DNA of 64,000 nucleotides from Escherichia phage vB_EcoS_HdH2: the sequence record NC_048748.1; one strand, given 5' to 3'. The notes below the pieces were generated by a model. The model ran no database searches and was not told the origin of the DNA. It saw only the letters and a program-made list of their open reading frames with translations. A program made the translations under genes and the position numbers. Each line of letters opens with the position of its first letter. Positions within the stretch are counted from its first letter, which is position 1. This document shows positions 50,813-64,000 of the stretch, in pieces.

Positions 50813-52600
50813 TTAGGTAAGGCGTTGAACTGTTACTCTTAATCTCGGTAGGAAAATAGCTGCAGCCTCATCAGCGTGAATAATTACGCCCAATTCAGCA
50901 TTACCATTTCCTAGATTTTTAATAGTATAAATATATCCGTTTCTTCTAAATGTTAACTCATCAGGTCTACTTGCCCAAGTTTGAGTATAACTGTATGCAG
51001 TAGTGGAGTGATAAGGGACTAAGTATCCAGGAGGTAAGGTTAATATTTGATGGAATATTCCATCACCTTCCGTGTAACTATGCTGTCTTCTTCCTTGTAC
51101 TTGCCAAGCAACACCACCATATGTGCGTATAGCTCCTCCTGCGGTATTAATATTCCCCATGATAACTTCAGTAGTTAATATTACTGTTGCGTTAGCATTA
51201 GGCAATCCTAATCCTATGGTGGCCAAAGCTCTATAGTAGTTACCTGCTCCAGGATATGTTGGAGTTATATCATCGCCAACGTAAGTGCTAGCAACATTAT
51301 TAGGAAATAGTCTTAAGGGTACAGTACTAGGACTCCACACAGCTCCATGCTCATTACCTATAGTGTTATTACTTGAGTTTACGTACCATTGTTTACCCGC
51401 TCCGAATTTGTAAATACTAATTTGAGACTTAGCCCCTCCATAATCTACGGGAGACCATAAAGATCCATTACTAGATCCTACAATTTCACAGCGCGCAGTA
51501 GTATCCCCGAAGGCTCCAGTGTACGCTGCGTTATTTCCAATGTACTCCATATCTGGCCTATAGCCTAAGTTACCAAAAGCATTTTGGTTGATAAACTTAT
51601 ATCCAGTATTTGGTAAACTAACCCCTTTTATAGTAAAATTAGATGGAGTTATAAGTATATCTGACCCAGTAAATGGATTACCGGATACGCCCATATTACC
51701 ATTAGAGTACCTTAGATTAAGTACATACCAAATAACTTTGGTAGGTGTAATATTATAACCATCCTGCACATATACTTTCTTAGCGGCCTGTGCCGCTAAA
51801 TTAGATGTTGAACCTTTGCATATGTAAACCTTATCAGGGTAAGTAGGAGATTGATACAATAAGTTAACATTAGCCGGTACTGTGCCCTTTTTACCTACAT
51901 AACCTCGTATATTAGAGTTACAAACGTAAAACCAATTATGCCCTCTATGGGCGGCCCCTATAGGAGCTTGCCAATTAGGGTGCCAGTAGTCAGCATTACC
52001 ACCATCTATAGGTACTGTAGACGCTCCTGCTGGAAATCCTGCTAAAGTCCATGCCCTACCTATAGCCTCACCAGCATATGCTCCTCCCGGTCTATATAAA
52101 TTAAACCCAGAGGCTTGAGATATGGTACCACCTGTACCCTGCCTAGCAATTGATTCTTCATGCCCTAAACCAGAGTTATAAATATAGGTGCCATGTGCTA
52201 AACTATTACCGGATGCAAAAGCTGACGTAAGACCTACTTCTGCACCTGCCCTACCAATAGGCGGATCTTCAAAAAATGCAGTAAATTGACCAACTTGAGA
52301 TTGAGTACCATTAAGAAAAGCTCTGTGAGTACCATTTATCTCAATAGCAGTTAGTATAACTCTACCTGGGTCGTTGGATTTAATATTTATTATGTCAGAG
52401 GGCATTTGACATACAAAAAACCCATTCCCGGCATTACCTAATGCAGCCTCATAAGTACCATCAACTAGGACAAATGGCATATCACTATGAAAAATACTAT
52501 TGGCATTTGGACTATAGTGACGATTAATGTCACCACCAGATTCAGTATTTAAAGATAGTACGGTCTTACCATCGCTATATTTTCCAGCGAAAAAACCCAT
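50813..52600 (-). CDS. receptor-binding tail protein (T5 pb5/oad-type)
   Basis: 595 aa; divergently adjacent to a lipoprotein gene as in T5 oad-llp; Gly/Asn/Tyr-rich. Confidence 0.6.
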
Positions 52601-52685: not shown

Positions 52686-52952
52686 ATGAAAAAGTTTGTG
52701 ATTGCACTAGTTGCCGCAGTTATGTTGTCTGGTTGTGCACCTACCCCCAAACCATTTTGTACGGGATTTGTAAAATCTTTTGGCGGTGCTGGGGAGGAGC
52801 ATTACGGCCTCAAGGTTCAAAAAGTTCGTATTAAGGGAGATCGCTTCCCAGTAGTACAGCTCCGTACTAAGTTTGGGTGGTGGGATCTCAGTCAGTTTGA
52901 CCTTAAATACGGTGATTGTAAATTTAAACTAGAGCAATCTAACTACCTGTAA
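52686..52952 (+). CDS. llp: lytic-conversion (superinfection exclusion) lipoprotein, Llp-like
   Basis: Signal peptide plus lipobox MKKFVIALVAAVMLSGC; 88 aa; divergent from receptor-binding protein gene. Confidence 0.7.
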   Translation: MKKFVIALVAAVMLSGCAPTPKPFCTGFVKSFGGAGEEHYGLKVQKVRIKGDRFPVVQLRTKFGWWDLSQFDLKYGDCKFKLEQSNYL

Positions 52953-53128
52953 TTAGTATAAAGCAAAAAGACATCCAAGTAAACTAAATTTTTTATTTCT
53001 TGGATGGTGTACTGGCAGAAACCACTATATAAGAAAAGTAGAAGTCCTTCTAGGAGTTCACAGGCACGGTTGGTTGTACACAAATTATAGAATATTTCAA
53101 AAATCACATTTATAGGAGTATGAAAGAT

Positions 53129-53257
53129 ATGTCAAACAAAAGAAAGAGCAGACGCGGAGAAGTGTACGATAGCTGGATTAATAGTTTTGGACTTGGTACT
53201 ATCCTATTCTTTATTTTCGTAGGTTTTTGGTTAGCAGCTATGGCGGGGTGGATTTAA
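53129..53257 (+). CDS. small membrane protein (42 aa)
   Basis: AGGAG 9 nt upstream; MSNKRKSRRGEVYDSWINSFGLGTILFFIFVGFWLAAMAGWI; not in ORF track (below its size cutoff). Confidence 0.5.
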   Translation: MSNKRKSRRGEVYDSWINSFGLGTILFFIFVGFWLAAMAGWI

Positions 53258-53364
53258 TGGAATGGGTAATTATTGCACTACTAGGGATTGTGATTATCGG
53301 GCAATGTATTTTAGATAATCACTTAGCTAGAATTGAAACCTTATTAACGGAGAAGCGTAAATGA
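53257..53364 (+). CDS. small membrane protein (35 aa)
   Basis: TAATG overlap with previous ORF; MEWVIIALLGIVIIGQCILDNHLARIETLLTEKRK. Confidence 0.45.
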   Translation: MEWVIIALLGIVIIGQCILDNHLARIETLLTEKRK

Positions 53365-53555
53365 TGGAAGTAGTAGCTACACTAATAGTAATACTAGTAT
53401 GGGCAACTTTCATTGTTTCTTATAACGCGTATGTTCGCCTAAAAACTCTAGAAGCTCAAGTAAAACAACAACAAGTTACTCTAGAAAAGCTAGTACTACT
53501 GCAACGTTGTGATAGCACCCGTATTCTGCAAATTGAGAGGGAATTAGATGTTTAG
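53361..53555 (+). CDS. small membrane protein (64 aa)
   Basis: ATGA overlap; N-terminal hydrophobic helix VVATLIVILVWATFIVSY. Confidence 0.5.
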   Translation: MMEVVATLIVILVWATFIVSYNAYVRLKTLEAQVKQQQVTLEKLVLLQRCDSTRILQIERELDV

Positions 53556-53793
53556 TATTATAATTGCTTTTATTATAGGGGTATTTGCGGGAGTTTTCGG
53601 GATGACTGCGGCTATTAACAAGCATCGTAAATATATTGCGGAAGTATCGCGGGAGATTGCGGAAAGGGAGCGGAAGTTTGACGAGAAACGTGCGGAGTTT
53701 GAGCGGGAGTGGTCGGATGGATCTCGGGCGTCGCGGAAGAGATTCCGTGAGTTTAGACCAGAACACAGGTTCGATGGCCCTTCTATGCGCTAA
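53548..53793 (+). CDS. small membrane-anchored protein with charged tail (81 aa)
   Basis: Hydrophobic IIIAFIIGVFAGVFGMTAAI then Arg/Glu-rich tail. Confidence 0.5.
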   Translation: MFSIIIAFIIGVFAGVFGMTAAINKHRKYIAEVSREIAERERKFDEKRAEFEREWSDGSRASRKRFREFRPEHRFDGPSMR

Positions 53794-53898
53794 TTGGGAA
53801 ATCTCGAAATTTCATAAGATTACACATGGAGGTGTGTCCAGTGGCCCCCCAGATGAGAATGAGTCTCATTACCGCCCGTTACTATTACCATGCTAACT

Positions 53899-53935
53899 GT
53901 TTCACCCTGCAACCATTTTAATTGCAAGGTGAAAC
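53899..53935. other. 13-bp-stem hairpin between convergent genes
   Basis: gtttcaccctgcaa / ttgcaaggtgaaac (one mismatch); no flanking U-run. Confidence 0.4.
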
Positions 53936-53952
53936 AATATCAACTTTAATTA

Positions 53953-54687
53953 TTACGCAACTTTTAATTTCTCGATATATTGTTGCGGGCTGCAACTATA
54001 TTCTGCGCGTTCTTCTTCTGTCATACTTTCCCAACATAATTGCAAGCGATCGGCTAGGAACTGATAATCATTATCATCCTCAAGAGATTCATCAATAAAG
54101 GTTTCACCTATCAATGTGACGCCGATTGATAGAATATCGTTAATAGCTTGCGCGTCCAGCGTTTTAAATCCATATGATGCCGCCGCTGATAGCACGCCTT
54201 TATGATCGTCGATCATCGTGAAATCAGCGTTCGGGTATAGCTGTTTGAATAGCTCAAAATAATGGCTTTTATAAATAGCGTCCTTACTGTGGTATATTTC
54301 GCTAACTTTATCAGCCGTAAAATATTTGTGAAGTGTATCGCGGGAAAATACACGGATATTACTATCCCCACGCCCTCGCAATCCTTGCTTGCGCAAATAA
54401 TAATAGTCCGACTTGCTCATCAGTCGAGCGGTACAAATAATGTTTAACGTGTTGGCGTCATTCATGCACTGGCGCATATATGTAACAAGCGGCAATAAAG
54501 TATCCTGCATTATTAAATCATGTTTACATGCTTCATTTTTATACTTATTTAAATCTAAATTCCCATCGCTATCAAAGCAAGGCGCTACGCGATGAAATGA
54601 ATTGATGATTGTTCCGTCCAGATCCCAAATCATGACGCGGGAAATATGCGGGAAATTACGGGTAATATTCGTTTTAACTTGATTCAT
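53953..54687 (-). CDS. dmp: HAD-family phosphatase, candidate 5'-deoxyribonucleotidase (dmp-like)
   Basis: 244 aa; HAD motif I MIWDLDGTIINS; located in pre-early-type block with A1-like gene. Confidence 0.5.
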   Translation of the reverse strand: MNQVKTNITRNFPHISRVMIWDLDGTIINSFHRVAPCFDSDGNLDLNKYKNEACKHDLIMQDTLLPLVTYMRQCMNDANTLNIICTARLMSKSDYYYLRKQGLRGRGDSNIRVFSRDTLHKYFTADKVSEIYHSKDAIYKSHYFELFKQLYPNADFTMIDDHKGVLSAAASYGFKTLDAQAINDILSIGVTLIGETFIDESLEDDNDYQFLADRLQLCWESMTEEERAEYSCSPQQYIEKLKVA

Positions 54688-54761
54688 TTTGTTACGTTCT
54701 CCGTTTAAGGGATTAAATTAAATTAATCCAGCCCACTGGATGGGCCGGACTATTCCAGCTA

Positions 54762-55154
54762 TTAAAGACCATAAGCCAACGCATCAGCGATAAAACTAAT
54801 ATCCTCACCTGATACATCGGAACGGATGCCCGCGCATGTAAATACCTTCGCGCTCATTAGCTGATCATCAAGGCAAGCGGGGCAAGGGGCAACTACTGCG
54901 AAAGCTAACCCCGATTTCACCGCGTCGATGATAGTCGTTTCTTGTTTCATCGTGTCAATATAAACGCCTTTCGCCTTGATGCGGCTGGATAGTTTGCCCG
55001 TGGTATAGGCAAAGGTAGTAACCTGCAAAGCGTCATTAAAATCTAATAGGTCATCAACAACGTGCCCCGCCTCAACGTGATACCGCTCACCATTAGAATA
55101 AACTAGGACGATGGAAGAATGAGCGCGATCGAATGGAATATTTTGCTTTTTCAT
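54762..55154 (-). CDS. hypothetical pre-early protein (A2 position)
   Basis: 130 aa, downstream of A1-like gene. Confidence 0.4.
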   Translation of the reverse strand: MKKQNIPFDRAHSSIVLVYSNGERYHVEAGHVVDDLLDFNDALQVTTFAYTTGKLSSRIKAKGVYIDTMKQETTIIDAVKSGLAFAVVAPCPACLDDQLMSAKVFTCAGIRSDVSGEDISFIADALAYGL

Positions 55155-55175
55155 ATTTATAAAACTCCAATTAGT

Positions 55176-55685
55176 TTAATAAGGGATATTAAATTCTTTA
55201 CACTTTGATTTAACCCATTCTAAAAGAATAGATAAATCATAATTGCCTTTTGAAACATATTTATTTGTTATAGGGTTTTTAATTTTTGCCCTGTAATATT
55301 CTCCCGCTATGGGATCAACTTTATCAAGATAAATATATTTCGGTAGTTTATTACGCCTTTTATAATCACTCTTATTTGTCATATTAACCGCATGAGTAAC
55401 TAGGCGTAAATTATTTATATCGTTGTTAACGGGGTAAGAAATTATTTTATGATCTATATCTAAATCAGGGTTAATTTCTTTATTAAATAAAACCCAAATT
55501 AAACGATGAGCTTTATATAATTCACCATTAATCATTACATCATAATAGCCTGTCTGATTTAATGTTCCCGCTACACTTCCAGCTTTCACACCGGGCTTAC
55601 TTATTTTCCATCGTAAAAATGATGGGCTAGATTCATCATAATAAACATTCTCGTTAACTTCATTAAAATCTATTTCTTTTGCCAT
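55176..55685 (-). CDS. free-standing HNH homing endonuclease
   Basis: YKAHRLIWVLF...DIDHKIISYPVNNDINNLRLVTHAVN; paralogue of 59474..59821. Confidence 0.75.
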   Translation of the reverse strand: MAKEIDFNEVNENVYYDESSPSFLRWKISKPGVKAGSVAGTLNQTGYYDVMINGELYKAHRLIWVLFNKEINPDLDIDHKIISYPVNNDINNLRLVTHAVNMTNKSDYKRRNKLPKYIYLDKVDPIAGEYYRAKIKNPITNKYVSKGNYDLSILLEWVKSKCKEFNIPY

Positions 55686-55755
55686 TTATATTCCTCCAAT
55701 TAATATTATCTCATTAATTGGAGGATTTAGGCAAATAAGGTTTTAATTTATCGGC

Positions 55756-57429
55756 TTACTGTACAAAGAATTTACCGTTCTTAAAGTCGATCAAAGTACG
55801 CTGGCCGTTCGCATAGGTAATAACATGCGTTTGCGTCCAGCTTGACGCGCCAACGTTGTAACCCATATCCAGACTACCAGACACGCCGGCAGTGTATACG
55901 CCGCCGTAAATGCTGGCGGTGTGAGTGTGCCCCGTGTTTAATTTGCCCAATTTCTTAAATTGCTTCGGATTGCCACGGCTCCCGTTAATGCCATTGTGAC
56001 CGTGTACGCCGCATTCAATGCCTGCAATTTTAAATGATTGGTCAGTGGTCAGGAAAATAGCGTTAAATTCACAACCTGCAACCTTGCGCAGCGCATAATC
56101 TAGCACGTTGAAAGTATCGTCTTTTTCTGCAATAGCTCCGTAAATCGCAGCATTAAGGCGGTGATATAGTTCCGCGTTGGCTGGATCGTCTTTAATGTTA
56201 GCATTACGATCATCAAGCCAACGGGATAACGCCAGATCATGGTTAGATTCAACAATGATCGTTTGAGCAAAATCGCGCTCCATTGATTCCAGTACGCGCC
56301 CGGTATCGATCAAATCATCAATAACCTTATCACGTCCGGCGGCGTATTGTTTTGCTAGGAATACACCAGACGCACGATTATGATGATTGCGTGATGTAAA
56401 ATCATGCACGTCATGCACAAACTGATATTTTGGCTTCAGAATATCAACAAGCCCGTAGGTGTCACCATGCCCCCACGACGCAGCGGCGCACTCCTCATCT
56501 AATTTTTCAGCGTGAATATCGCCATATTGTAAACCTAAAACGTGCCCCGTTGTTTCATAGCATCCGGCGGGAGTGGCGCAAATATTCAAATCGTAAAACA
56601 TGCCGCTTTCGTCCATCGTTTCAAGCTGGCGAACAAAAAATTCCCCGTCCTCGTCGAACTCAACGACAAGCGCACCAAAGTTATGTAGCGCCTCGGCCTT
56701 TTGCCCTGCTTTCTGCTGGATGTAGTTTTTAAGCGTTGCCGTGCCCGTTGAATACATGCGGCGCACTACTTCACCTTTTAAAGCTGGCACGCTTTCGGCG
56801 GTGATTTTAGCCGCCCCGATTGCCAGACCTTCCAGATTAAGCGCCGTTGCAGTTTCAGCGAATCCAGAAAGCGGATAATCTGCGGTAGGTAACACGTTAA
56901 TCTCCGCCATGAAAGCAAAACGGCGATTATTTAAAAACACGTTTTTGCTGCAAATATATTTATCAAATGCAGAATCATATTTGATTCCGTCCGCGCCCTC
57001 ACCATTTTGGAATCCGTTTTTATTATAAATATACTTAGAAACAAGCAAATCAGCGCCGATAAACTGGGCATATTGTTCAAGCGAGGCTAAAAAGTTTTTA
57101 TGCGGGAAAGTATTATTCTGAATCGAGGTAATAATAAAGCGTTTGCCTTGTTTTACTTCCCAGCTTTCCACCGTGCTAGAAATAACTCCGGCGGCTTCAG
57201 GGCGGTCATCGTTTTTAATAGCTTTTACAGTTTTTGCCGCTTTTGGTTTCGCTGGTTTATTTGCTTCCAGCCAATCACAAATAGCGGTGGAATGCTTTGG
57301 AGTATCGTAAACCGCTTTCGAAATATCGTCGCATACTTCCAGTTTAGTAGCGCGCAGACGTTTACCATAGAAATTGAAGTCAGCGGCAAGGTTCAGGATA
57401 ACGGTTTGTTTTTCTGCGGAAATAATCAT
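55756..57429 (-). CDS. A1: A1-like pre-early protein, calcineurin-type metallophosphoesterase
   Basis: 557 aa; motifs GLQYGDIHAEK, VESNHD, GVHGHNG, GHTH. Confidence 0.7.
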   Translation of the reverse strand: MIISAEKQTVILNLAADFNFYGKRLRATKLEVCDDISKAVYDTPKHSTAICDWLEANKPAKPKAAKTVKAIKNDDRPEAAGVISSTVESWEVKQGKRFIITSIQNNTFPHKNFLASLEQYAQFIGADLLVSKYIYNKNGFQNGEGADGIKYDSAFDKYICSKNVFLNNRRFAFMAEINVLPTADYPLSGFAETATALNLEGLAIGAAKITAESVPALKGEVVRRMYSTGTATLKNYIQQKAGQKAEALHNFGALVVEFDEDGEFFVRQLETMDESGMFYDLNICATPAGCYETTGHVLGLQYGDIHAEKLDEECAAASWGHGDTYGLVDILKPKYQFVHDVHDFTSRNHHNRASGVFLAKQYAAGRDKVIDDLIDTGRVLESMERDFAQTIIVESNHDLALSRWLDDRNANIKDDPANAELYHRLNAAIYGAIAEKDDTFNVLDYALRKVAGCEFNAIFLTTDQSFKIAGIECGVHGHNGINGSRGNPKQFKKLGKLNTGHTHTASIYGGVYTAGVSGSLDMGYNVGASSWTQTHVITYANGQRTLIDFKNGKFFVQ

Positions 57430-57526
57430 AGTAATAAAGCTCCATTAAAGGGATTAAAAACGTTTGTTATTGGCAAATATTGCCAGATATAACGCCGCTT
57501 ATTTACAGCGTTATAACTTGCAATAT

Positions 57527-57772
57527 TTAACTAATCGGCATAAGGCTAGAACTAACACCACAAGCAACGGCGGCAATAAAGCAAAGTAAGCCCAACCGCT
57601 TTGCTAATTTAGATTTACGTTTAAAATAATATGAATCTAAATCATTTTGAAAATAAGCGAACAATAATGAGGCCGCTACAATAAATAAGCCTAAAATTAG
57701 CGATTCAGTGGGGTAAAAGATCATTTTAATAACTCCAGTCAAAGGGAAATTATAGTGGGGAATATTCCCCAC
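57527..57772 (-). CDS. small membrane protein
   Basis: 81 aa; two hydrophobic helices. Confidence 0.5.
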   Translation of the reverse strand: MGNIPHYNFPLTGVIKMIFYPTESLILGLFIVAASLLFAYFQNDLDSYYFKRKSKLAKRLGLLCFIAAVACGVSSSLMPIS

Positions 57773-57781
57773 TAATTAAAT

Positions 57782-58189
57782 TTATTCGCCTGCGGCTTGT
57801 TTTACTTCATCGGCAACGCCTAACAGCTGCGCCACGGCGTCCAACGTTTCTAATTTTGCGCTTTCCAGTGATGCCAGATCGTCAACGTCTTTGATAATGC
57901 CGGAATCAATGGCATGTTTAGCGATAACACGCACATAATGCGCTTTACGAATGGAACTGCCGCCGCCAACTTTACGCGGCTTATCGCTTTTCTGATACGC
58001 TTTCGCGCTGGTCAATTTTGAGCGAACGGACACGGGGGAGGCCGCACCTACTGCTTTCGCAATCTCTTTCAAGCCGTCGCTATTTGCGAAATCTAAACCG
58101 TTTTCATTGATTAGCTGCTGATACATGGAAACAGCCTGCTGGGTGTTTTCTTCATTCCAAGAAAATTTTGCGGTTTTAACGTTAGTCAT
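57782..58189 (-). CDS. hypothetical pre-early protein
   Basis: 135 aa; AGGAG SD. Confidence 0.55.
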   Translation of the reverse strand: MTNVKTAKFSWNEENTQQAVSMYQQLINENGLDFANSDGLKEIAKAVGAASPVSVRSKLTSAKAYQKSDKPRKVGGGSSIRKAHYVRVIAKHAIDSGIIKDVDDLASLESAKLETLDAVAQLLGVADEVKQAAGE

Positions 58190-58290
58190 GATTATAACTC
58201 CTATTGAATTAATTTAAGGGATAAGATTAACATAATGTTAATCGTTATATCCCCCGAACTACTGGGGGATATAAAAGTAACACTATAAAC

Positions 58291-58542
58291 TTATGCTACA
58301 GCTTCCCATTTTTCGTTACGCTGGATAACCTTTACAGCGTCGCCGGATTTAACCCGAACGCTATAAATAGTTTTTCCGTTGTTACTCCGTTCCGTTTCAG
58401 CGTATACCGCATCAATTACATCAAACGGCATAAGCGCCGCGCCTTTGATGCGTTCGGTTTTTCCGGTTGCCTCATCCGTTTTAGTAACGAAAGGAATAAA
58501 AACGGATTGACCAATTTTAGGCGCATTAGTAACGTTTTGCAT
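58291..58542 (-). CDS. hypothetical small protein
   Basis: 83-aa ORF. Confidence 0.45.
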   Translation of the reverse strand: MQNVTNAPKIGQSVFIPFVTKTDEATGKTERIKGAALMPFDVIDAVYAETERSNNGKTIYSVRVKSGDAVKVIQRNEKWEAVA

Positions 58543-58774
58543 AGTATAAACTCCAGTTTATTTAGTGGATTGTTCCGCATTACCTGCTGTAAAAGTAGTG
58601 GCAGGTAATAAGTAACAATCCGCTCGCCATTATAATCAATTTAAGGAACTCCACTCAGGCCGCTATATCCCAGTTAGGGGGCGGGGCACATTATGGCAAG
58701 TACCGGCCGTCAAATTTTATCAAGTTATCGCTCTCATCGAACTGGGTACATCTTAAAGCCTATCGGCTAGGGTG

Positions 58775-58978
58775 TCAAACAATTTTTTGCAGTTTTTTAT
58801 GATTCTCTTTCAAGTCAATCATAATATTGCGCCAGATCATTTCCAACCCTTGCTGGCGGCCTTTCTTGTACTGCGTGAATCTATATTTTACGGATTGCTG
58901 AGCTATTGTCAACAATTTTTTAGTAGTACCATCCAATTTTTTGGCTGGTTTACCAGTTATTAAAAGCGTTTGTTTCAT
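58775..58978 (-). CDS. hypothetical small basic protein, enclosed by 24-bp inverted repeats
   Basis: 67 aa, Lys-rich; AAGGA SD. Confidence 0.4.
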   Translation of the reverse strand: MKQTLLITGKPAKKLDGTTKKLLTIAQQSVKYRFTQYKKGRQQGLEMIWRNIMIDLKENHKKLQKIV

Positions 58979-59473
58979 ATCTGCGATTCCTTATATAATT
59001 GATAAGTTTACCGCCGATAGACTTTAAGATGTACCCAATTTTTAAAGAGCGCGGCGGTAAACTTTCCCGCCGTGTAGTTCGTCATTGCCGCCCTACGAGA
59101 TAAATAATAGGGGATACCCAAAAATGGCGCAACCTTATTTTTGTAAAGAAATGTAAAGAAGGCAACACGCCCGGCGCTCACATAAGTTTAAAGGAAACGG
59201 GCGCGCGGATACCACAAAACACAGCAGATAGGCAAGTAATTTTTTCATTTATATTTGCCTTGCCCTACTTGACAAAACTTAAAAAGCTCGTGGTAGCGAT
59301 AAACGAGGGTAGGCAATGCAATGGCATACCTGAAAATTTTACCGCTTTCTAGGGCGTTTTAGGCGGCCTAAAATTGATTTAACAAATATTTAACAACTGC
59401 AAAATTGAAAAATAGTTGGAAAAGGTATTGACTTTTAAAAATCAAGACTAAATGAGTTATTTTATAAAATTAA

Positions 59474-59821
59474 TTAATTGACTTTCTTTTTATATTGTGA
59501 AGGCCGGTTTTTATTGTTTTCGGCCTGCGTTACTTGTCTAAGGTTATCCCCTTTATTATTTAGCTTGTTACGATCAATATGATCAATCATTAGATTACTA
59601 TCTATTTCACCATGTAATAGTAACCATACGACACGATGTACTAAATAACATTCTTTATTAAGTCGAACGATATAATAACCTTGTGAATAGTAAGTACCTG
59701 CAACTGTATCTTTCCTAACTCTTCCCTTATTGACTTTCCAGCGTAGTGACGTTTTCGATGTTTCATCATAATAAAAGTAATGATTAAACAAGTCATAATC
59801 CATTTCTTTATATTTACCCAT
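59474..59821 (-). CDS. free-standing HNH homing endonuclease
   Basis: YLVHRVVWLLLHG...DHIDRNKLNNKGDNLRQVTQAEN; N-terminus parallels 55176..55685. Confidence 0.75.
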   Translation of the reverse strand: MGKYKEMDYDLFNHYFYYDETSKTSLRWKVNKGRVRKDTVAGTYYSQGYYIVRLNKECYLVHRVVWLLLHGEIDSNLMIDHIDRNKLNNKGDNLRQVTQAENNKNRPSQYKKKVN

Positions 59822-59876
59822 TGTTATAGTTTCCTTATGTTATTAATTTAATCTCTATTATATTATATCAAAACCA

Positions 59877-59959
59877 TTAGCAGACTACCTAATGAGTTTT
59901 TCAAGTTTAATTAGCAGACTACTAATCCCGGAAAATCTCATTAGCCAACTAACTATTTC
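59877..59959 (+). repeat. three direct repeats of TTAGC(A/C)(G/A)ACTA(C/A)
   Basis: Copies at 59877, 59911, 59941 in the intergenic region upstream of the HNH gene start. Confidence 0.6.
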
Positions 59960-60085
59960 TTGAGTTATAATATAAATATAAATTAATGAGAAATAATCAC
60001 TATAAAAATAATCACTACGATAATAATAACAACAAGAAACTATCGGCCTAAGTGAGAACCACTATCATTTAAGTTATTCACAAAG

Positions 60086-60181
60086 TTATCCACAGCACAA
60101 AATGATTTGACACGATAGGCGGCGATATACGGGCTTATCCACAGACTTATCCACAGGTTATCCTACTGTATAAATATACAG
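60086..60181 (+). promoter_or_regulatory. left inverted-repeat module: three DnaA boxes plus a LexA-like SOS box
   Basis: TTATCCACA at 60086, 60135, 60147; CTGTATAAATATACAG at 60166..60181. Confidence 0.7.
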
Positions 60182-60448
60182 GGTAGAAAGGTAGTGTTAA
60201 CGACTGCAATCAATTTTATGCCGCCTAAAACGCTTTCTAACGAGCTAAATGCGGTGGGGTAATATTAAAGTAAAGCCGCAACGCGTCGCCCTGGTGGCTT
60301 CGCCGTGTTTTGCTCTTTACTATGCCGCTGCGCGGTTAGCATAAAACTAGGTGTTAGGCAAGGAAAATAAAAAGGTAAAATAATATTTGCCCCTAGAAAG
60401 AAAATACCTTTATCATTCACTCACCGATTAACGAGGGAGGCCGAACAA

Positions 60449-61426
60449 ATGAGGCTTTATAAACCAGATAACGCAACCGTCTTAAAAGGTGCATTGCGCA
60501 ACCTGCTGGATGGTAGCAGAACAACCAGCATTAAACACTTTGTTAACAAGGCCGAAGATATTCACCAAAATTTTTTTGATGATTTCGACGCCTATGATAT
60601 GAGTAGCTTTTTGCAACTATATAAGCAAGGGGCAACGATTATCTTATATAATCGAGATAATCACCTGCTTACTAGCAGGGGGCCGGACACTGATTTCATA
60701 ATCGTAAAAGGTAACACAGTAAAAGCCTATGATACTGGGGCGGGCTTAGAAGTTTTTTCAATAGAAAACTATGAAGCCAACCCCAATGATCTTTATGACG
60801 TTGAAAACTTTCTTGATTCATTTTGGCGTTATTTATCCGTTGGCTGGAATCGGTCAATTGGTGACGGGTATCGTCTGGCGGCTGTAATGGCTTTTGATGA
60901 TAACGGTAATTTTTTGTTACCGTCGGAAGTATACCCATACGTATATGATGGGGATATAGAAAGCGCGGGCTTTTCTTTCTGGAAGGAGGAGGATCAGCCT
61001 ATTGACAACACGGAAAAACATGCTGTAAATTCTAACACTCAAACCATTGAAAACAAAGGAAAAAATGCCATGACCAAGATCGCTAATATCGTTGCCGCTA
61101 ATAAGTCCGCCGTTGTAAATGCTGCAAAACTGGAAGCGGGTAAAATTGCACTGACTCAAATTACGAAAGTAGCGGCTAAAAAAGCACCGTTTATTATCAA
61201 GGGTTATATTGATACGCCGATTGGTCGGGTAGTGATTGCCAACCTGCTGAGCGTAGCGGTTGACCAGTACTCCCCTAGCAACCAAAAGGCGAAAGCGGTA
61301 GCGGATGCAGCTATGGAAGCGGCTATGTTAGAAATGGTACAAAGTTTTAACATCGCTGAAATGATTGACGAAATGGTGAAAGGTATTGATATTTCTACTT
61401 TTACCGTTAACACCGAAAACGAGTAA
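60449..61426 (+). CDS. hypothetical protein
   Basis: 325 aa; GAGG SD; terminator downstream. Confidence 0.65.
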   Translation: MRLYKPDNATVLKGALRNLLDGSRTTSIKHFVNKAEDIHQNFFDDFDAYDMSSFLQLYKQGATIILYNRDNHLLTSRGPDTDFIIVKGNTVKAYDTGAGLEVFSIENYEANPNDLYDVENFLDSFWRYLSVGWNRSIGDGYRLAAVMAFDDNGNFLLPSEVYPYVYDGDIESAGFSFWKEEDQPIDNTEKHAVNSNTQTIENKGKNAMTKIANIVAANKSAVVNAAKLEAGKIALTQITKVAAKKAPFIIKGYIDTPIGRVVIANLLSVAVDQYSPSNQKAKAVADAAMEAAMLEMVQSFNIAEMIDEMVKGIDISTFTVNTENE

Positions 61427-61451
61427 TAGTTAACCTAGTGTAAAGTTTTGT

Positions 61452-61480
61452 AAAGGTCGCCATAATCGGCGACCTTTTTT
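61452..61480 (+). terminator. intrinsic terminator
   Basis: aaaggtcgcc-ataat-cggcgaccttt followed by tttttt. Confidence 0.7.
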
Positions 61481-61544
61481 GTTATAATGCCTTTACACCG
61501 TTCGAGGACGGTTGAAAATTTTCCCAAAAATTTGGAGGCTTAAA

Positions 61545-61775
61545 ATGGTTGCTTATTCTTCTTCTGACTCTCTTTTCACTGGAAAAGGTTGGGTGTCCAA
61601 TCGCTGGATCATTCAAGAAATGGTGCAAGAATACGGCATTGCTAAAACTTACACTACCATTCAGGCGCTTTATGATAATGATCAGATTGATCAGCAGACA
61701 GCTGGCTTTTTGCTGGATACCCTGAAGGCGGAACATTGTACTAAAAAACAAGCCGCCAAAATCGTTTTAATGTAA
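61545..61775 (+). CDS. hypothetical small protein
   Basis: 76 aa from ATG 61545 after TGGAGG. Confidence 0.5.
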   Translation: MVAYSSSDSLFTGKGWVSNRWIIQEMVQEYGIAKTYTTIQALYDNDQIDQQTAGFLLDTLKAEHCTKKQAAKIVLM

Positions 61776-61821
61776 TTAATAACGGGGCGTTATTTTCGCC
61801 CCACTAACTAGGAGAATGAAA

Positions 61822-61968
61822 ATGGTTATTTTTCGAGCTATTCTGGCGGGTATCTTGGGCGCTATTTTATCTTTGTTTGCAATAGCTTTCGACGTTCACG
61901 CGGTTATTATTGGCGCGGGTATCGCTGTTTTTTCTTATTTGCTGGGCTGCATGAATAAAGGAGAATAA
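61822..61968 (+). CDS. small membrane protein (48 aa)
   Basis: AGGAG upstream; MVIFRAILAGILGAILSLFAIAFDVHAVIIGAGIAVFSYLLGCMNKGE. Confidence 0.5.
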   Translation: MVIFRAILAGILGAILSLFAIAFDVHAVIIGAGIAVFSYLLGCMNKGE

Positions 61969-61970
61969 AA

Positions 61971-62183
61971 ATGATCCGCAACGTTTCTCTTGCTCGTTCA
62001 AAAGGTTTTAAGCTGGTGGACGTTAACACGTTCGAACGGGAAGATTGTAAAATCGAATATATAGCACGGAATAAAAACGCCTTCCGTGTTACAGAAAAGA
62101 AATTCGATAAACGGGGTAACGTGATAGCTGAAACGGTTAAATATTTTGCCACCTTTTACGCTGCGTTTCGTGGGGTACTATGA
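61971..62183 (+). CDS. hypothetical small protein
   Basis: 70 aa, AAAGGAG upstream. Confidence 0.5.
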   Translation: MIRNVSLARSKGFKLVDVNTFEREDCKIEYIARNKNAFRVTEKKFDKRGNVIAETVKYFATFYAAFRGVL

Positions 62184-62305
62184 AAAGCGTTATTGTTATT
62201 CTCCTTGCAATGGTTGGCGGTTTTACCGCCACCTTATTTAAGAATGATCCCCTTTTACTGGGGATTTTTATGCTTTTATCTGGTTATCTGATCGGGAGGT
62301 TATAA
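62180..62305 (+). CDS. small membrane protein (41 aa)
   Basis: ATGA overlap; MKSVIVILLAMVGGFTATLFKNDPLLLGIFMLLSGYLIGRL. Confidence 0.45.
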   Translation: MKSVIVILLAMVGGFTATLFKNDPLLLGIFMLLSGYLIGRL

Positions 62306-62306
62306 A

Positions 62307-62651
62307 ATGGTAATTTATGAGGGCAACCGCTTTGTTACTAATTGCCGCCCGGCATTATTAGCAAACTACTTAAACCAGCTTTCACCTGAATATAAGGGCG
62401 TTGTTAATATTTACGAGGGAAAAGCGCATTATAAGATTAATGCGGTCGTTGCCCGTGAACTAGCATTTCAATTTTTGACCTTCGCATCGTGTGATATTCA
62501 GGTCATGGGTGAAGCATTAATAGCAGAAAATGAAGACGATTTTATTAATATTTTCCGCAAGGTATGCACCGAGCGCCTGATCATGAAAGGTGTATATATT
62601 CAATCAACGGCGGAAAGTATTGAAACGGCTTTTCGAAAGGTGGCACAATGA
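62307..62651 (+). CDS. hypothetical protein
   Basis: 114 aa; GGGAGG SD. Confidence 0.55.
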   Translation: MVIYEGNRFVTNCRPALLANYLNQLSPEYKGVVNIYEGKAHYKINAVVARELAFQFLTFASCDIQVMGEALIAENEDDFINIFRKVCTERLIMKGVYIQSTAESIETAFRKVAQ

Positions 62652-62753
62652 GATTATATATTTTCGCGGGTAATGTTGAGGCTGCAAATGATTCCGCTGG
62701 TGGCGATAATGTTCGCCACTATTGGCAAAAATATATTTACTAGGAGCTATATA

Positions 62754-62948
62754 ATGGGCAAGAATATTATTGTGACCAAAATCAGTACAATGGTTGACGT
62801 TTTTTACGTGCCCGATACGCCAGAAAACCGGCAAGCGGTCGAGCGGGGCGATTATGGTAGCGTTATTTATGATCACGATGGCTATTATCGGCATTTGGTC
62901 GATTCCTATGGGGAGGAGGAGAAGATCACGCATCGACTACCAGACTAA
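62754..62948 (+). CDS. hypothetical small protein (start uncertain)
   Basis: ATG 62754 after AGGAG; ORF track extends the frame to 62673. Confidence 0.45.
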   Translation: MGKNIIVTKISTMVDVFYVPDTPENRQAVERGDYGSVIYDHDGYYRHLVDSYGEEEKITHRLPD

Positions 62949-63025
62949 TAATCACGGGGCGCAACTATCAGGGAGTGCCCCAATTCCCAAATGAGAATCA
63001 TTCTCATTTGACCGCGCCCGTGATG

Positions 63026-63093
63026 GTTAGCCCGCTAACGATTAGGGTGTTACGTGTTGCCTTGTGTGATCGTTAGCGGGCTAACTAATTTTT
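63026..63093 (+). terminator. large hairpin plus T-run after the small-gene operon
   Basis: gttagcccgctaacg ... cgttagcgggctaac (15-bp arms, ~30-nt loop) followed by taattttt. Confidence 0.45.
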
Positions 63094-63205
63094 AAGCCTC
63101 CTCCAATTTTGCCCTTGTTTTAGTATCCCCACCAAAATTAAACGCGTTAGAATGCGATTCAGGACGTTTTAGCGGTATATTAGAATTATTCACTACATAG
63201 GAATA

Positions 63206-63313
63206 CTGTATAAATATACAGTAGGATAAGCTGTGGATAAGTCTGTTAATAACGCCTCAAAATGGCTAGGATTCTGTCAAGTCAAATCGTGCTGTTAATA
63301 AGTCTGTGGATAA
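63206..63313 (-). promoter_or_regulatory. right inverted-repeat module: LexA-like SOS box plus two DnaA boxes
   Basis: TACTGTATAAATATACAGTA (19/20 to LexA consensus); TGTGGATAA at 63232 and 63305 (TTATCCACA on minus strand). Confidence 0.7.
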
Positions 63314-63511
63314 CTTAAATAACAGTGTTTCTCACTTCCATTCTTAAACGAGAATGATTCTCATTTGCATTCCACTGTCTAACCGATAATCATTTCCTTT
63401 CTTAAATGAGAATCATTTCACTTTTTGAATAGTTCTCATTTCACTTCTTAAATGAGAATCATTATCATTCGCATTCCACTTCTTAAATGATAATGATTCT
63501 CATTCAAAGTC

Positions 63512-63536
63512 GCAGGGCAATTGCCCTGCGCTTTTG
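63512..63536 (+). terminator. palindromic hairpin plus T-run
   Basis: gcagggcaattgccctgc followed by gcttttg. Confidence 0.5.
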
Positions 63537-63755
63537 TGCAAATCCGACATGTGCTCCAAGGGTTACGTGCTGGCGTGTATGTGCAAATCCGACAATTTTT
63601 GGTAGTGTGCAAATCCGACCCGAAAAATTTATAAATTCGTGAGAGTGACGAATCTGTCTCCTAAAAACTCCAGCAATCACGAACTGCGTTCGAATCCTGT
63701 GGAATTAGCTAGAGTATGTGCAAATCCGACATGTGTTGAGCTGTGCGAATCCGAT
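63536..63755 (+). repeat. five direct repeats of GTGC(A/G)AATCCGA(C/T)
   Basis: Copies at 63536, 63581, 63607, 63718, 63743 with irregular spacing. Confidence 0.7.
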
Positions 63756-63779
63756 GAAATTTTTGTGACTTCGATGAGA

Positions 63780-63940
63780 GGGTGTGTGATTGTATAGGTT
63801 TGAGGAGAAGATGAGAGAGCGAGAAAAATTTGGGAGGCTAGAAGGATGTGGGTGCAGGATTGGTGCGGAGCACCTGATTTGCGGGGATTTTGGGGAAGAG
63901 TTGAGAAGATTTGGGAAGATTTGAGATAGGTGCAGAAAAA
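63780..63940 (+). repeat. purine-rich strand-asymmetric tract with GATTTGGGAAG-type repeats
   Basis: About 160 bp almost devoid of C on the plus strand; repeated gagaagat and tttggg(g)aag units; no ORF. Confidence 0.6.
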
Positions 63941-64000
63941 GCGAAATTTTATTAGCTAAATGGGGCAAAATAGCTTGACAAGTGAAAATTCTTGTGGCTC

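Follow-up and report, generated by a model that had tools for sequence, protein, structure and literature searches.

What is encoded by the four tiny, overlapping open reading frames (ORFs) that lie downstream of the lipoprotein gene llp in Escherichia phage vB_EcoS_HdH2, and what would a T5-like phage use them for? The window, meaning the whole stretch of 64,000 nt analysed here (NC_048748.1), carries this cassette, o1–o4, on the plus strand at 53129–53793, ending 42 nt short of the right terminal repeat, which begins at ~53835 (Table 1).

Table 1. Coordinates of the o1–o4 cassette and neighbouring features in the window.
Feature	Coordinates	Strand	Description
llp	52686..52952	+	BF23/BtuB-type receptor-blocking lipoprotein; phrog_1119, lipobox, LPAM_1
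llp–o1 spacer	52953..53128	+	176 nt, variable slot
o1	53129..53257	+	42 aa; = T5.159, phrog_8596; core gene
o2	53257..53364	+	35 aa; = T5.160, phrog_6369; accessory, copy number varies
o3	53361..53555	+	64 aa; = T5.161, phrog_5851; accessory gene
o4	53548..53793	+	81 aa; = T5.162, phrog_6447 ('membrane protein'); core gene
Hairpin	53898..53936	.	Between o4 and convergent dmp; dG -17.6 kcal/mol

ORF calls and hydropathy confirmed the preliminary description of four ORFs of these sizes with one hydrophobic helix each, every product showing a single 17-residue window with a mean Kyte–Doolittle hydropathy of 2.3–2.7. The chaining by TAATG and ATGA that was described for the whole series holds at the first two junctions, where a 1-nt overlap (TAATG) puts the o2 start on the o1 stop and a 4-nt overlap (ATGA) puts the o3 start on the o2 stop, but not at the third, an 8-nt overlap (ATGTTTAG). 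These start/stop overlaps suggest that synthesis of the four proteins is linked, at a constant ratio. A Shine–Dalgarno site precedes each gene, with anti-SD pairing of -6.3 to -6.8 kcal/mol, equal to that of llp; the o1 site (AGGAG, 53114–53118) falls within the llp–o1 spacer. The 42-aa start of o1 is the right one: eight phages share this AGGAG and its ATG (53129) without change, whereas three of the eight lack the upstream ATG at 53120.

Within the 64-kb window, o1–o4 are the sole chain of at least three coupled ORFs with transmembrane (TM) helices. Among 100 simulated 64-kb sequences of matched dinucleotide frequency, the longest such chain was one ORF and none reached even two, which rules out a chance origin; without the TM requirement, none of the 100 held a chain of four. 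Comparison with 12 relatives gave dN/dS values of 0.03–0.58 (o1, 0.03–0.37; o3, up to 0.58) with all four frames kept, and frames, starts, Shine–Dalgarno sites and overlaps are retained down to ~74% nucleotide identity. o1–o4 are real, conserved genes under purifying selection. The central proposal of translationally coupled membrane ORFs is thereby borne out as a set of single-pass micro-protein genes conserved in related phages, and the loss of their frames in those phages, which would have spoken against it, is not seen. A 96-aa antisense ORF (53476–53766) is a shadow ORF: in T5 and nine other relatives, stop codons interrupt its frame.

By sequence, o1–o4 are already known as T5 ORF148–ORF151 (AY587007), which correspond to T5.159–T5.162 in the numbering of NC_005859, so the novelty implied at first does not stand: the ORFs are annotated in T5 and represented in PHROGs. 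Full-length PHROG profile matches were obtained for o1 (phrog_8596, E 3.8e-32), o2 (phrog_6369, E 2.8e-26), o3 (phrog_5851, E 4.7e-34) and o4 (phrog_6447, E 4.8e-46), and the CRISPRi-ART annotation table gives T5.159–162 those same families (8596/6369/5851/6447) (PMC11879866). Amino acid identity to T5 is 100% for o1, 97% for o2, 80% for o3 and 89% for o4, the cassette as a whole being ~92% identical at the nucleotide level. Gene order, strand, overlaps and location, with llp/pb5 on one side and the right terminal repeat on the other, are shared as well; T5 differs in carrying FhuA-type llp and pb5, which are unrelated to those here, and in that the annotated ORF148 has a longer N-terminus than o1. 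More than 400 T5-like genomes annotate orthologues, as hypothetical or membrane proteins.

A survey of 38 loci revealed an invariant pair and a variable remainder: o1 and o4 were present in 38/38, an o2-family gene in 36/38 and o3 in 26/38, with zero to two paralogous copies of o2 per genome. All junctions in these loci are start/stop overlaps of 1, 4, 8 or 13 nt, and the overlap survives the loss of o2 and/or o3 or the gain of an o2 paralog. The extra copy is exemplified by bas33_0190 (51 aa), a paralog of o2 (z = 6.5, 0/500 shuffles); a paralogous relationship of o3 to o2 or bas33_0190 was unsupported (z 0.4–2.5). The most divergent of the four is o3, at 37–44% amino acid identity to the Epseptimavirus version.

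Beyond this lineage, searches with o4 returned little. A word-indexed search of 5.8 billion proteins gave 81 matches, every one T5-like and at least 70% identical, and the o4 profile, run as an exhaustive HMM search against 1.84 billion representatives, gave five, all T5-like members of the same family and no remote homologue among them; on this sequence evidence o4 is an orphan restricted to the T5-like lineage. Searches of all four peptides against Pfam, NCBIfam and PADLOC yielded nothing above curated cut-offs, and the o4 profile, run against PDB sequences, yielded coiled-coil noise only. In the literature, T5.159–162 were not found in the main text of any paper, neither the genome paper on BF23 nor the preprint on two-step injection in T5 mentions the orthologues, and the HIDEN-SEQ phage set includes no T5-like phage. 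In Klebsiella Sugarlandvirus, K7PH164C4_LOCUS150 and LOCUS149 (74 and 151 aa) are positional analogues in the same slot, divergent from the RBP gene and convergent with dmp. Each likewise has an N-terminal TM helix and a second helix that is Arg-rich or coiled-coil, and the smaller product (74 aa) starts MEVVI... like o2 and o3; the slot differs in holding two genes only and no llp. Homology to o3 or o4 was not demonstrable (hhalign probability 19% for the 74-aa protein against o3; no match of the 151-aa protein to o4).

The neighbouring llp had been taken as a clue to function, the cassette being placed directly downstream of it. That position is correct approximately, given the 176-nt spacer, which contains what is left of the 3' end of an ORF still intact in EPS7, SH9, C13 and Shivani and which in other relatives is the insertion site of a homing endonuclease. 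In BF23 a predicted promoter is annotated in this spacer; a structured RNA there was rejected, the fold being no better than that of shuffled sequences (z = -0.94) and its hairpin not kept in EPS7. The pb5–llp receptor module is exchanged independently of o1–o4: T5 combines its ~92% identical cassette with a non-homologous FhuA-type llp, Shivani has all four ORFs in a region without a lipoprotein gene, and the cassette is conserved across both FhuA-type (T5) and BtuB-type (BF23, this window) modules. Because the cassette is also found without llp, functional inference from the neighbourhood is weak, and the earlier argument from proximity fails; llp is not a member of the conserved cassette, and the tie between them is one of position alone. 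Nor do o1–o4 belong to the Cor/Llp-type receptor-blocking lipoproteins (phrog_1119), since a lipobox is absent from all four and they are not co-inherited with a matching receptor-binding protein. Llp is an outer-membrane lipoprotein specific to one receptor, whereas o1–o4 are conserved whatever the receptor type.

Expression is nevertheless probably shared, llp and the cassette adjoining on the same strand and probably forming one early transcription unit. In T5, an early promoter is annotated ahead of llp and none ahead of ORF148, with a terminator past ORF151. The hairpin downstream of o4 is kept in T5 and BF23, sits just inside the right terminal repeat and coincides with a putative rho-independent terminator in the T5 record; it is the probable transcription stop of the llp–o4 unit. 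In Bas33 RNA-seq data at 20 min, from a library without strand specificity, TPM values in two replicates were 219/127 for llp, 162/137 for the o2 paralog and 462/408 for o3, all of which fell to 0 when daunorubicin blocked second-step transfer (SST), with pre-early dmp still high (PMC13250531, Dataset S1). The cassette region is transcribed in Bas33 in an SST-dependent manner and at approximately the level of llp. Counts for o1, o2 and o4 were low (o4, 22/13 TPM) (PMC13250531, Dataset S1); short-gene counting explains the low reads of o1 and o2 but not those of o4, where reads drop from the level of o3.

In the CRISPRi-ART knock-down of T5, T5.159–162 and llp were all 'Not Fit' (PMC11879866). 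The screen is insensitive, with just 17 Fit genes and several virion genes scored 'Not Fit' (PMC11879866), and dispensability of T5.159–162 on the laboratory host is therefore weakly shown.

The TM prediction and the flanking charges, evaluated by the positive-inside rule, gave one TM helix per protein, with the C-termini of o2–o4 and the o1 N-terminus on the cytoplasmic side and practically no periplasmic residues. o1 begins with the basic sequence MSNKRKSRRGE and ends in a TM helix that reaches the final residue, and is predicted to be tail-anchored with its N-terminus inside. o2 starts with its TM helix (MEWVIIALLGIVIIGQCIL) and continues into a short amphipathic tail ending in RIETLLTEKRK, whereas o3 couples an N-terminal TM helix to a heptad-patterned helix and carries the conserved C-terminal motif R-I-x-Q-[IL]-E-[RK]-E-L-D-V. 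In o4, the TM helix runs from residue 1 and contains a glycine zipper (G11/G15/G18); beyond it follow an invariant juxtamembrane AINKHR and a long Arg/Glu-rich helix with the invariant EREWSDGSRASRKRF, the tail being variable beyond approximately residue 66. The Arg/Glu-rich tail reported at the outset is present in the quoted form, and an AlphaFold2 model of o4 shows one helix over residues 2–69 (pLDDT 72).

We tentatively favour the explanation that the cassette specifies an accessory inner-membrane complex of micro-proteins that modifies the envelope by exclusion or membrane protection, while regarding it as possible rather than probable. A small, tightly coupled operon on the llp strand, probably part of an early second-step-transfer-dependent unit shared with llp, would give rise to four single-pass micro-proteins of the inner membrane. 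Its invariant core would consist of tail-anchored o1, with its basic cytoplasmic N-terminus, and of o4, with its glycine-zipper TM helix and long, conserved Arg/Glu-rich cytoplasmic helix, while o2 and o3, in which an N-terminal TM helix leads into a cytoplasmic one of amphipathic or coiled-coil type, would serve as exchangeable accessory subunits. The four may associate by their TM segments as a hetero-oligomer in the infected cell's cytoplasmic membrane. This complex would modify that membrane in an accessory, receptor-independent way, whether by protection, by re-sealing or by exclusion of superinfecting T5-like DNA at the inner-membrane step, and would complement Llp yet act independently of it. 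It is no component of the lysis system, the virion or the replication machinery; its formation, the topology of the proteins, a transcript shared with llp and the function are all four what we infer.

The closest functional parallels are T4 Imm and Sp, which are small, early, inner-membrane proteins of a virulent coliphage, dispensable on laboratory hosts and without sequence similarity to o1–o4. Inner-membrane superinfection exclusion (T4 Imm/Sp, HK97 gp15, P22 SieA) is a functional class and not a sequence family, and by analogy the class of T4 Imm and Sp would be the most likely one for o1–o4. T4 Imm has two TM helices and T4 Sp a periplasmic domain. Most characterised inner-membrane exclusion proteins, among them T4 Sp and HK97 gp15, possess a periplasmic domain, whereas none of o1–o4 does, which counts against the explanation we favour; because of this absence, any exclusion would have to work inside the bilayer or from its cytoplasmic side. 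A more specific version, which we consider rather doubtful, is that o1–o4 form an unrecognised complex giving T5-like phages a second, receptor-independent layer of exclusion, or re-sealing the membrane after DNA entry, by acting in the bilayer or on its cytoplasmic face, for example against the tape-measure/pb2 channel, which is conserved, of whatever T5-like phage comes in, in which case the variable o2 and o3 would reflect rivalry among related phages.

The strong conservation of the cytoplasmic helix in o4 points to a partner in the cytoplasm and would suit host take-over or anti-defence equally. It is conceivable, if still somewhat improbable, that this membrane-tethered helix, aided by o1, binds a host protein associated with the inner membrane and inhibits it, with o2 and o3 adapting the system to different hosts; among the candidate targets are a defence or abortive-infection sensor anchored in the membrane, FtsH, LapB-type regulators and the division machinery. 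The invariant AINKHR and EREWSDGSRASRKRF would suit a specific cytoplasmic partner, as would the absence of periplasmic residues; accessory subunits that vary in copy number and evolve faster, as seen in the dN/dS of o3, resemble an arms race; and the lack of a fitness effect on a laboratory strain is expected of conditionally needed genes. The LapA/YciS domain (PF06305) and ZapG/YhcB-like bitopic proteins place a charged cytoplasmic helix after a TM helix, as o4 does, and 12 of 15 o4 family members matched the Pfam LapA domain below threshold (best E 9.7e-5), with weaker ZapG-like and FtsL matches. All of these matches, however, fall under curated cut-offs and are not reciprocal, the best LapA score being 22.6 bits against a 28-bit gathering cut-off, and the o4 profile retrieved no LapA-family or other bacterial protein from the 1.84 billion representatives; the likeness of o4 to LapA is most likely compositional or architectural. 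PADLOC gave no match, and the core genes o1 and o4 are so well conserved over phages infecting E. coli, Salmonella and other hosts that housekeeping is a better fit than an arms race.

Where small bitopic phage membrane proteins have been characterised, they are mostly lysis proteins, and a holin-like role was among those named in the preliminary description. Regulation of lysis timing, with o1–o4 as antiholin-like or holin-like partners modulating the T5 holin in the membrane or via its cytoplasmic face, would draw on this general precedent and on the generic holin-like build of o4, a TM helix with a highly charged C-terminal domain; small size and an N-terminal TM helix with a coiled-coil or charged domain are features that Rz-type i-spanins and holins share with the cassette proteins. 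We nonetheless judge it unlikely. The holin and spanin roles are filled by a complete T5-like lysis cassette elsewhere, comprising holin, endolysin, i-spanin and o-spanin (PMC4342426), and o1–o4 match no holin family in Pfam, PHROGs or NCBIfam. Matches of o3 and o4 to the PHROG 'Rz-like spanin' are very weak and not significant (E 0.14–0.18), and their predicted C-terminus-in topology is the reverse of that of i-spanins, so a spanin identity was rejected. A two-component spanin is likewise not found here: Llp, the sole nearby lipoprotein, has been characterised as a receptor blocker, and the cassette also occurs where no lipoprotein is encoded. Moreover, the cassette lies in an early unit with llp, distant from lys (T5.040), and the T5 holin was 'Fit' in the knock-down screen in which T5.159–162 were not (PMC11879866).

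A toxin/antidote pair, for instance o1 as a depolarising type-I-toxin-like peptide with o4 as its antagonist, is very improbable. The size and build of o1, 42 aa with a charged end and a TM helix, recall small hydrophobic toxins, and o1 and o4 always co-occur, a pattern for which a complex accounts equally well; an addiction module has no obvious rationale in a strictly lytic phage, homology to type I toxin–antitoxin or other toxin families was found in none of PHROGs, Pfam, NCBIfam and PADLOC, and the antisense ORF is not conserved. The pair as first proposed finds no support, and none of the holin, spanin and toxin–antidote readings has specific support; of the roles first suggested, exclusion or a membrane-acting module may apply.

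A non-functional origin, as chance ORFs or as a cis-acting DNA element beside the terminal-repeat (packaging) boundary, would accord with the 42 nt that separate the cassette from that boundary, with proteins not detected so far and with a knock-down of T5.159–162 that gave no phenotype, but we assign it a negligible probability, as it is effectively refuted already by dN/dS, the locus survey and the simulations: most substitutions are synonymous, frames, start codons, Shine–Dalgarno sites and overlaps persist at ~74% identity, gene losses are in-frame and re-create the coupling, and the chance expectation from 100 simulations is zero.

As a discovery the cassette carries little weight, being annotated in T5, assigned to existing PHROG families and already included in a genome-wide knock-down screen. 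What it leaves is a lead for further work: o1 and o4, two orphan membrane micro-proteins of a classical model phage, are conserved universally as a pair, with swappable accessory subunits beside them and strict translational coupling. At less than 700 bp, the cassette offers an easily cloned target for the study of how T5-like phages may handle the inner membrane once their DNA has been injected in two steps, or may exclude competitors that use different receptors.

Downstream of llp, which encodes a receptor-blocking lipoprotein of the BF23/BtuB type, lies a cassette of four small ORFs, o1-o4, whose coordinates and lengths agree with those in a preliminary description of this DNA. Each encoded protein has one strongly hydrophobic segment, as that description had also stated. 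The junctions are TAATG (o1/o2, 1-nt overlap), ATGA (o2/o3, 4 nt) and ATGTTTAG (o3/o4, 8 nt), and all four starts carry Shine-Dalgarno sites equal in strength to that of llp. For o1, the earlier choice of the second ATG (53129) is correct: this codon and its AGGAG are invariant in eight phages, and the upstream ATG at 53120 is absent from three of the eight. No other run of at least three overlap-coupled transmembrane (TM) ORFs occurs in the window; in 100 composition-matched random 64-kb sequences, the longest such run had a length of one.

Features of the cassette and its surroundings (window positions)
Feature	Position	Strand	Remark
pb5-type receptor-binding protein	50813-52600	-	
llp, BtuB-type lipoprotein	52686-52952	+	
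llp-o1 spacer	52953-53128		
o1-o4 cassette, four small ORFs	53129-53793	+	
o1	53129-53257	+	42 aa
o2	53257-53364	+	35 aa
o3	53361-53555	+	64 aa
o4	53548-53793	+	81 aa
Antisense ORF, rejected	53476-53766	-	96 aa, GTG start
o4 tail	53746-53793	+	residues ~67-81
Right terminal repeat, start	~53835		alignment to annotated T5 and BF23 boundaries
Conserved hairpin	53898-53936		14-bp stem
dmp, pre-early gene	53953-54687	-	
HNH_3 homing endonuclease	55176-55685	-	169 aa
A1, pre-early gene	55756-57429	-	

The four ORFs are real genes. Lack of conserved reading frames in related phages had been named as grounds against them; tblastn recovered the same frames from 12 annotated relatives, at nucleotide identities as low as ~74%. 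Nei-Gojobori dN/dS values of relatives against the window were 0.03-0.37 for o1, 0.04-0.41 for o2, 0.05-0.58 for o3 and 0.11-0.53 for o4. The antisense ORF over o3/o4, open in the window, was rejected as a shadow ORF because stops break it in T5 and nine other relatives. The T5 annotation (AY587007) places the four genes, as ORF148-151, after llp and ahead of the right terminal repeat; in BF23, DT57C and HildyBeyeler they are entered as hypothetical or putative membrane proteins. They match PHROGs 8596, 6369, 5851 and 6447 (o1 to o4) end to end, the same families that a CRISPRi-ART re-annotation of T5 assigned to T5.159-T5.162 (PMC11879866), and matches to the 700-bp cassette occur in 444 phage records. 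Being annotated already in a model phage and hundreds of relatives, the cassette is therefore not novel.

Across 38 loci from partly overlapping collections, o1 and o4 were both present in every locus, at least one o2-family gene in 36 and o3 in 26. Three genomes, including HildyBeyeler (Bas33), carry a fifth coupled ORF between o1 and o2. This 51-aa ORF (bas33_0190, positions 2158-2313 of the HildyBeyeler locus L013; also in loci L024 and L029) is an o2 paralog (z = 6.5, a score reached by 0 of 500 shuffles), sharing the MEWVII start and RIETLL-E-RK end of o2 and having an added helical segment; a relationship between o3 and o2 was not demonstrable. All junctions of all variants in the 38 loci are start/stop overlaps of 1, 4, 8 or 13 nt; thus, gene loss or gain has always restored translational coupling. 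This pattern argues for co-ordinated production of the cassette proteins, which would fit subunits of one assembly.

The o1 protein has a basic N-terminus (five K/R within 14 residues) followed by a TM helix reaching the C-terminus, and o2, o3 and o4 begin with the TM helix (at most three residues ahead of it) with K/R directly after. From this K/R placement, the positive-inside rule predicts cytoplasmic soluble parts and almost no periplasmic exposure for all four. Invariant features of o4 are a glycine zipper (G11, G15, G18), a juxtamembrane AINKHR and the EREWSDGSRASRKRF block, and AlphaFold2 predicts residues 2-69 as one continuous helix (mean pLDDT 72). Past residue ~66, relatives carry alternative, unrelated tails, in at least four versions (EFRPEHRFDDPSMR, AKVSDEE, MSESGDKPVDRRSS and IDDKI); the tails diverge at the point of insertion of the homing endonuclease genes that follow o4 in Shivani and HildyBeyeler.

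Neither indexed nor profile searches found o4 relatives outside T5-like phages: all 81 indexed matches were at least 70% identical, and a profile run against 1.84 billion representatives yielded just five hits, all from the o4 family itself. Searches of Pfam, NCBIfam, PADLOC and PDB gave nothing above threshold. Membership of the LapA domain, matched by 12 of 15 o4 family members, was rejected, the matches being below the gathering score and non-reciprocal. In Klebsiella Sugarlandvirus, the slot between the receptor-binding protein gene and dmp contains two ORFs of 74 and 151 aa (4353-5036 in L014, the locus of Klebsiella phage vB_Kpn_K7PH164C4) and no llp-like lipoprotein. Both proteins combine an N-terminal TM helix with a coiled coil or an Arg-rich helix, and the 151-aa one has a long C-terminal tail of low complexity, rich in Ser and Gly. 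The pair is a partial positional analogue of the cassette; homology was not demonstrable. Proteus and Vibrio family members have nothing comparable in the slot.

The source phage is a T5-like Tequintavirus resembling BF23, chee24 and HildyBeyeler, and many Tequintavirus records share 91-96% identity with the 1.4 kb surrounding the cassette. The o4 stop lies 42 nt before the right terminal repeat, so the remaining ~10.2 kb of the window (53835-64000) belongs to the repeat, which carries dmp and A1, both pre-early. The hairpin (dG -17.6 kcal/mol), located where o4 and dmp converge, is almost unchanged in T5 and BF23, and the T5 annotation lists it as a putative rho-independent terminator; it is not followed by a T-run in either direction. 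Within the repeat, between a 130-aa ORF and A1, lies an HNH_3 homing endonuclease gene (Pfam 26.8 bits, cut-off 24.8); the matching spot in BF23 is without a gene.

The preliminary description had argued from adjacency to llp towards function, and three observations weaken that argument. The window has a BF23-type llp to which that of T5 is unrelated, yet the T5 cassette is ~92% identical in nucleotides (amino acid identities 100, 97, 80 and 89% for o1 to o4), which places the cassette outside the swappable receptor module. Shivani, reported without llp (PMC4342426), carries all four ORFs; a lipobox scan that recovers llp in T5 and the window found none there. The llp-o1 spacer varies in content: in EPS7, SH9, C13 and Shivani it contains an acidic ORF of 104-108 aa beginning MQDEEKSFQEP (slot positions 1267-1581 and 703-1029 in compared loci L004 and L012), reduced to its last ~50 nt in the window, BF23 and DT57C, and in polluks, falkor and Shivani the spacer is interrupted by an HNH homing endonuclease gene. 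Co-transcription of llp and cassette is nonetheless likely, since they share a strand and T5 is annotated with an early promoter ahead of llp, none ahead of ORF148 and a terminator past ORF151.

Published RNA-seq of Bas33, the window's closest relative (95.6%), at 20 min (two replicates, library not strand-specific) gave TPM values of 219/127 for llp, 162/137 for the o2 paralog, 462/408 for o3, 22/13 for o4 and 5136/3009 for the major capsid protein (PMC13250531 Dataset S1). With second-step transfer of phage DNA blocked, all cassette genes fell to zero and pre-early dmp was still high (PMC13250531 Dataset S1); the cassette is therefore transcribed only from DNA which that step delivers. Counts of ~2 for the 108- and 129-nt cassette genes (PMC13250531 Dataset S1) look like a read-length artefact, as other genes below 150 nt are likewise near zero. 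Gene length does not account for the ~20-fold fall in read counts from o3 (1704/1243) to the overlapping o4 (104/51), past which a homing endonuclease is high again (5363/3739; PMC13250531 Dataset S1); RNA processing or a separate promoter could produce it. In the T5 CRISPRi-ART screen, T5.159-T5.162 scored -3.86, -3.55, -4.11 and -3.60 (KS p 0.24-0.91), all 'Not Fit', as was llp (PMC11879866). With just 17 genes called Fit and several virion genes missed (PMC11879866), the screen can show no more than the absence of a strong requirement for the cassette on a laboratory host.

A receptor-independent envelope function complementing Llp, either inner-membrane protection or re-sealing or the exclusion of incoming T5-like DNA, is our tentative reading. 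Nearly equal to it is host take-over or anti-defence through the conserved cytoplasmic o4 helix, itself a somewhat doubtful proposal. Of the options raised earlier, a toxin/antidote pair found no specific support. A lysis role, including the holin/antiholin-like option, is unlikely because the holin, endolysin and both spanins of T5-like phages are encoded in a cassette of their own (PMC4342426), spanin PHROG matches were non-significant and the predicted topology is opposite to that of an i-spanin. The membrane module stands from the preliminary description, and its tie to llp and its lysis reading do not. This leaves an accessory assembly of inner-membrane micro-proteins, in which o1 and o4 would form the conserved core and o2 and o3 would be exchangeable subunits.
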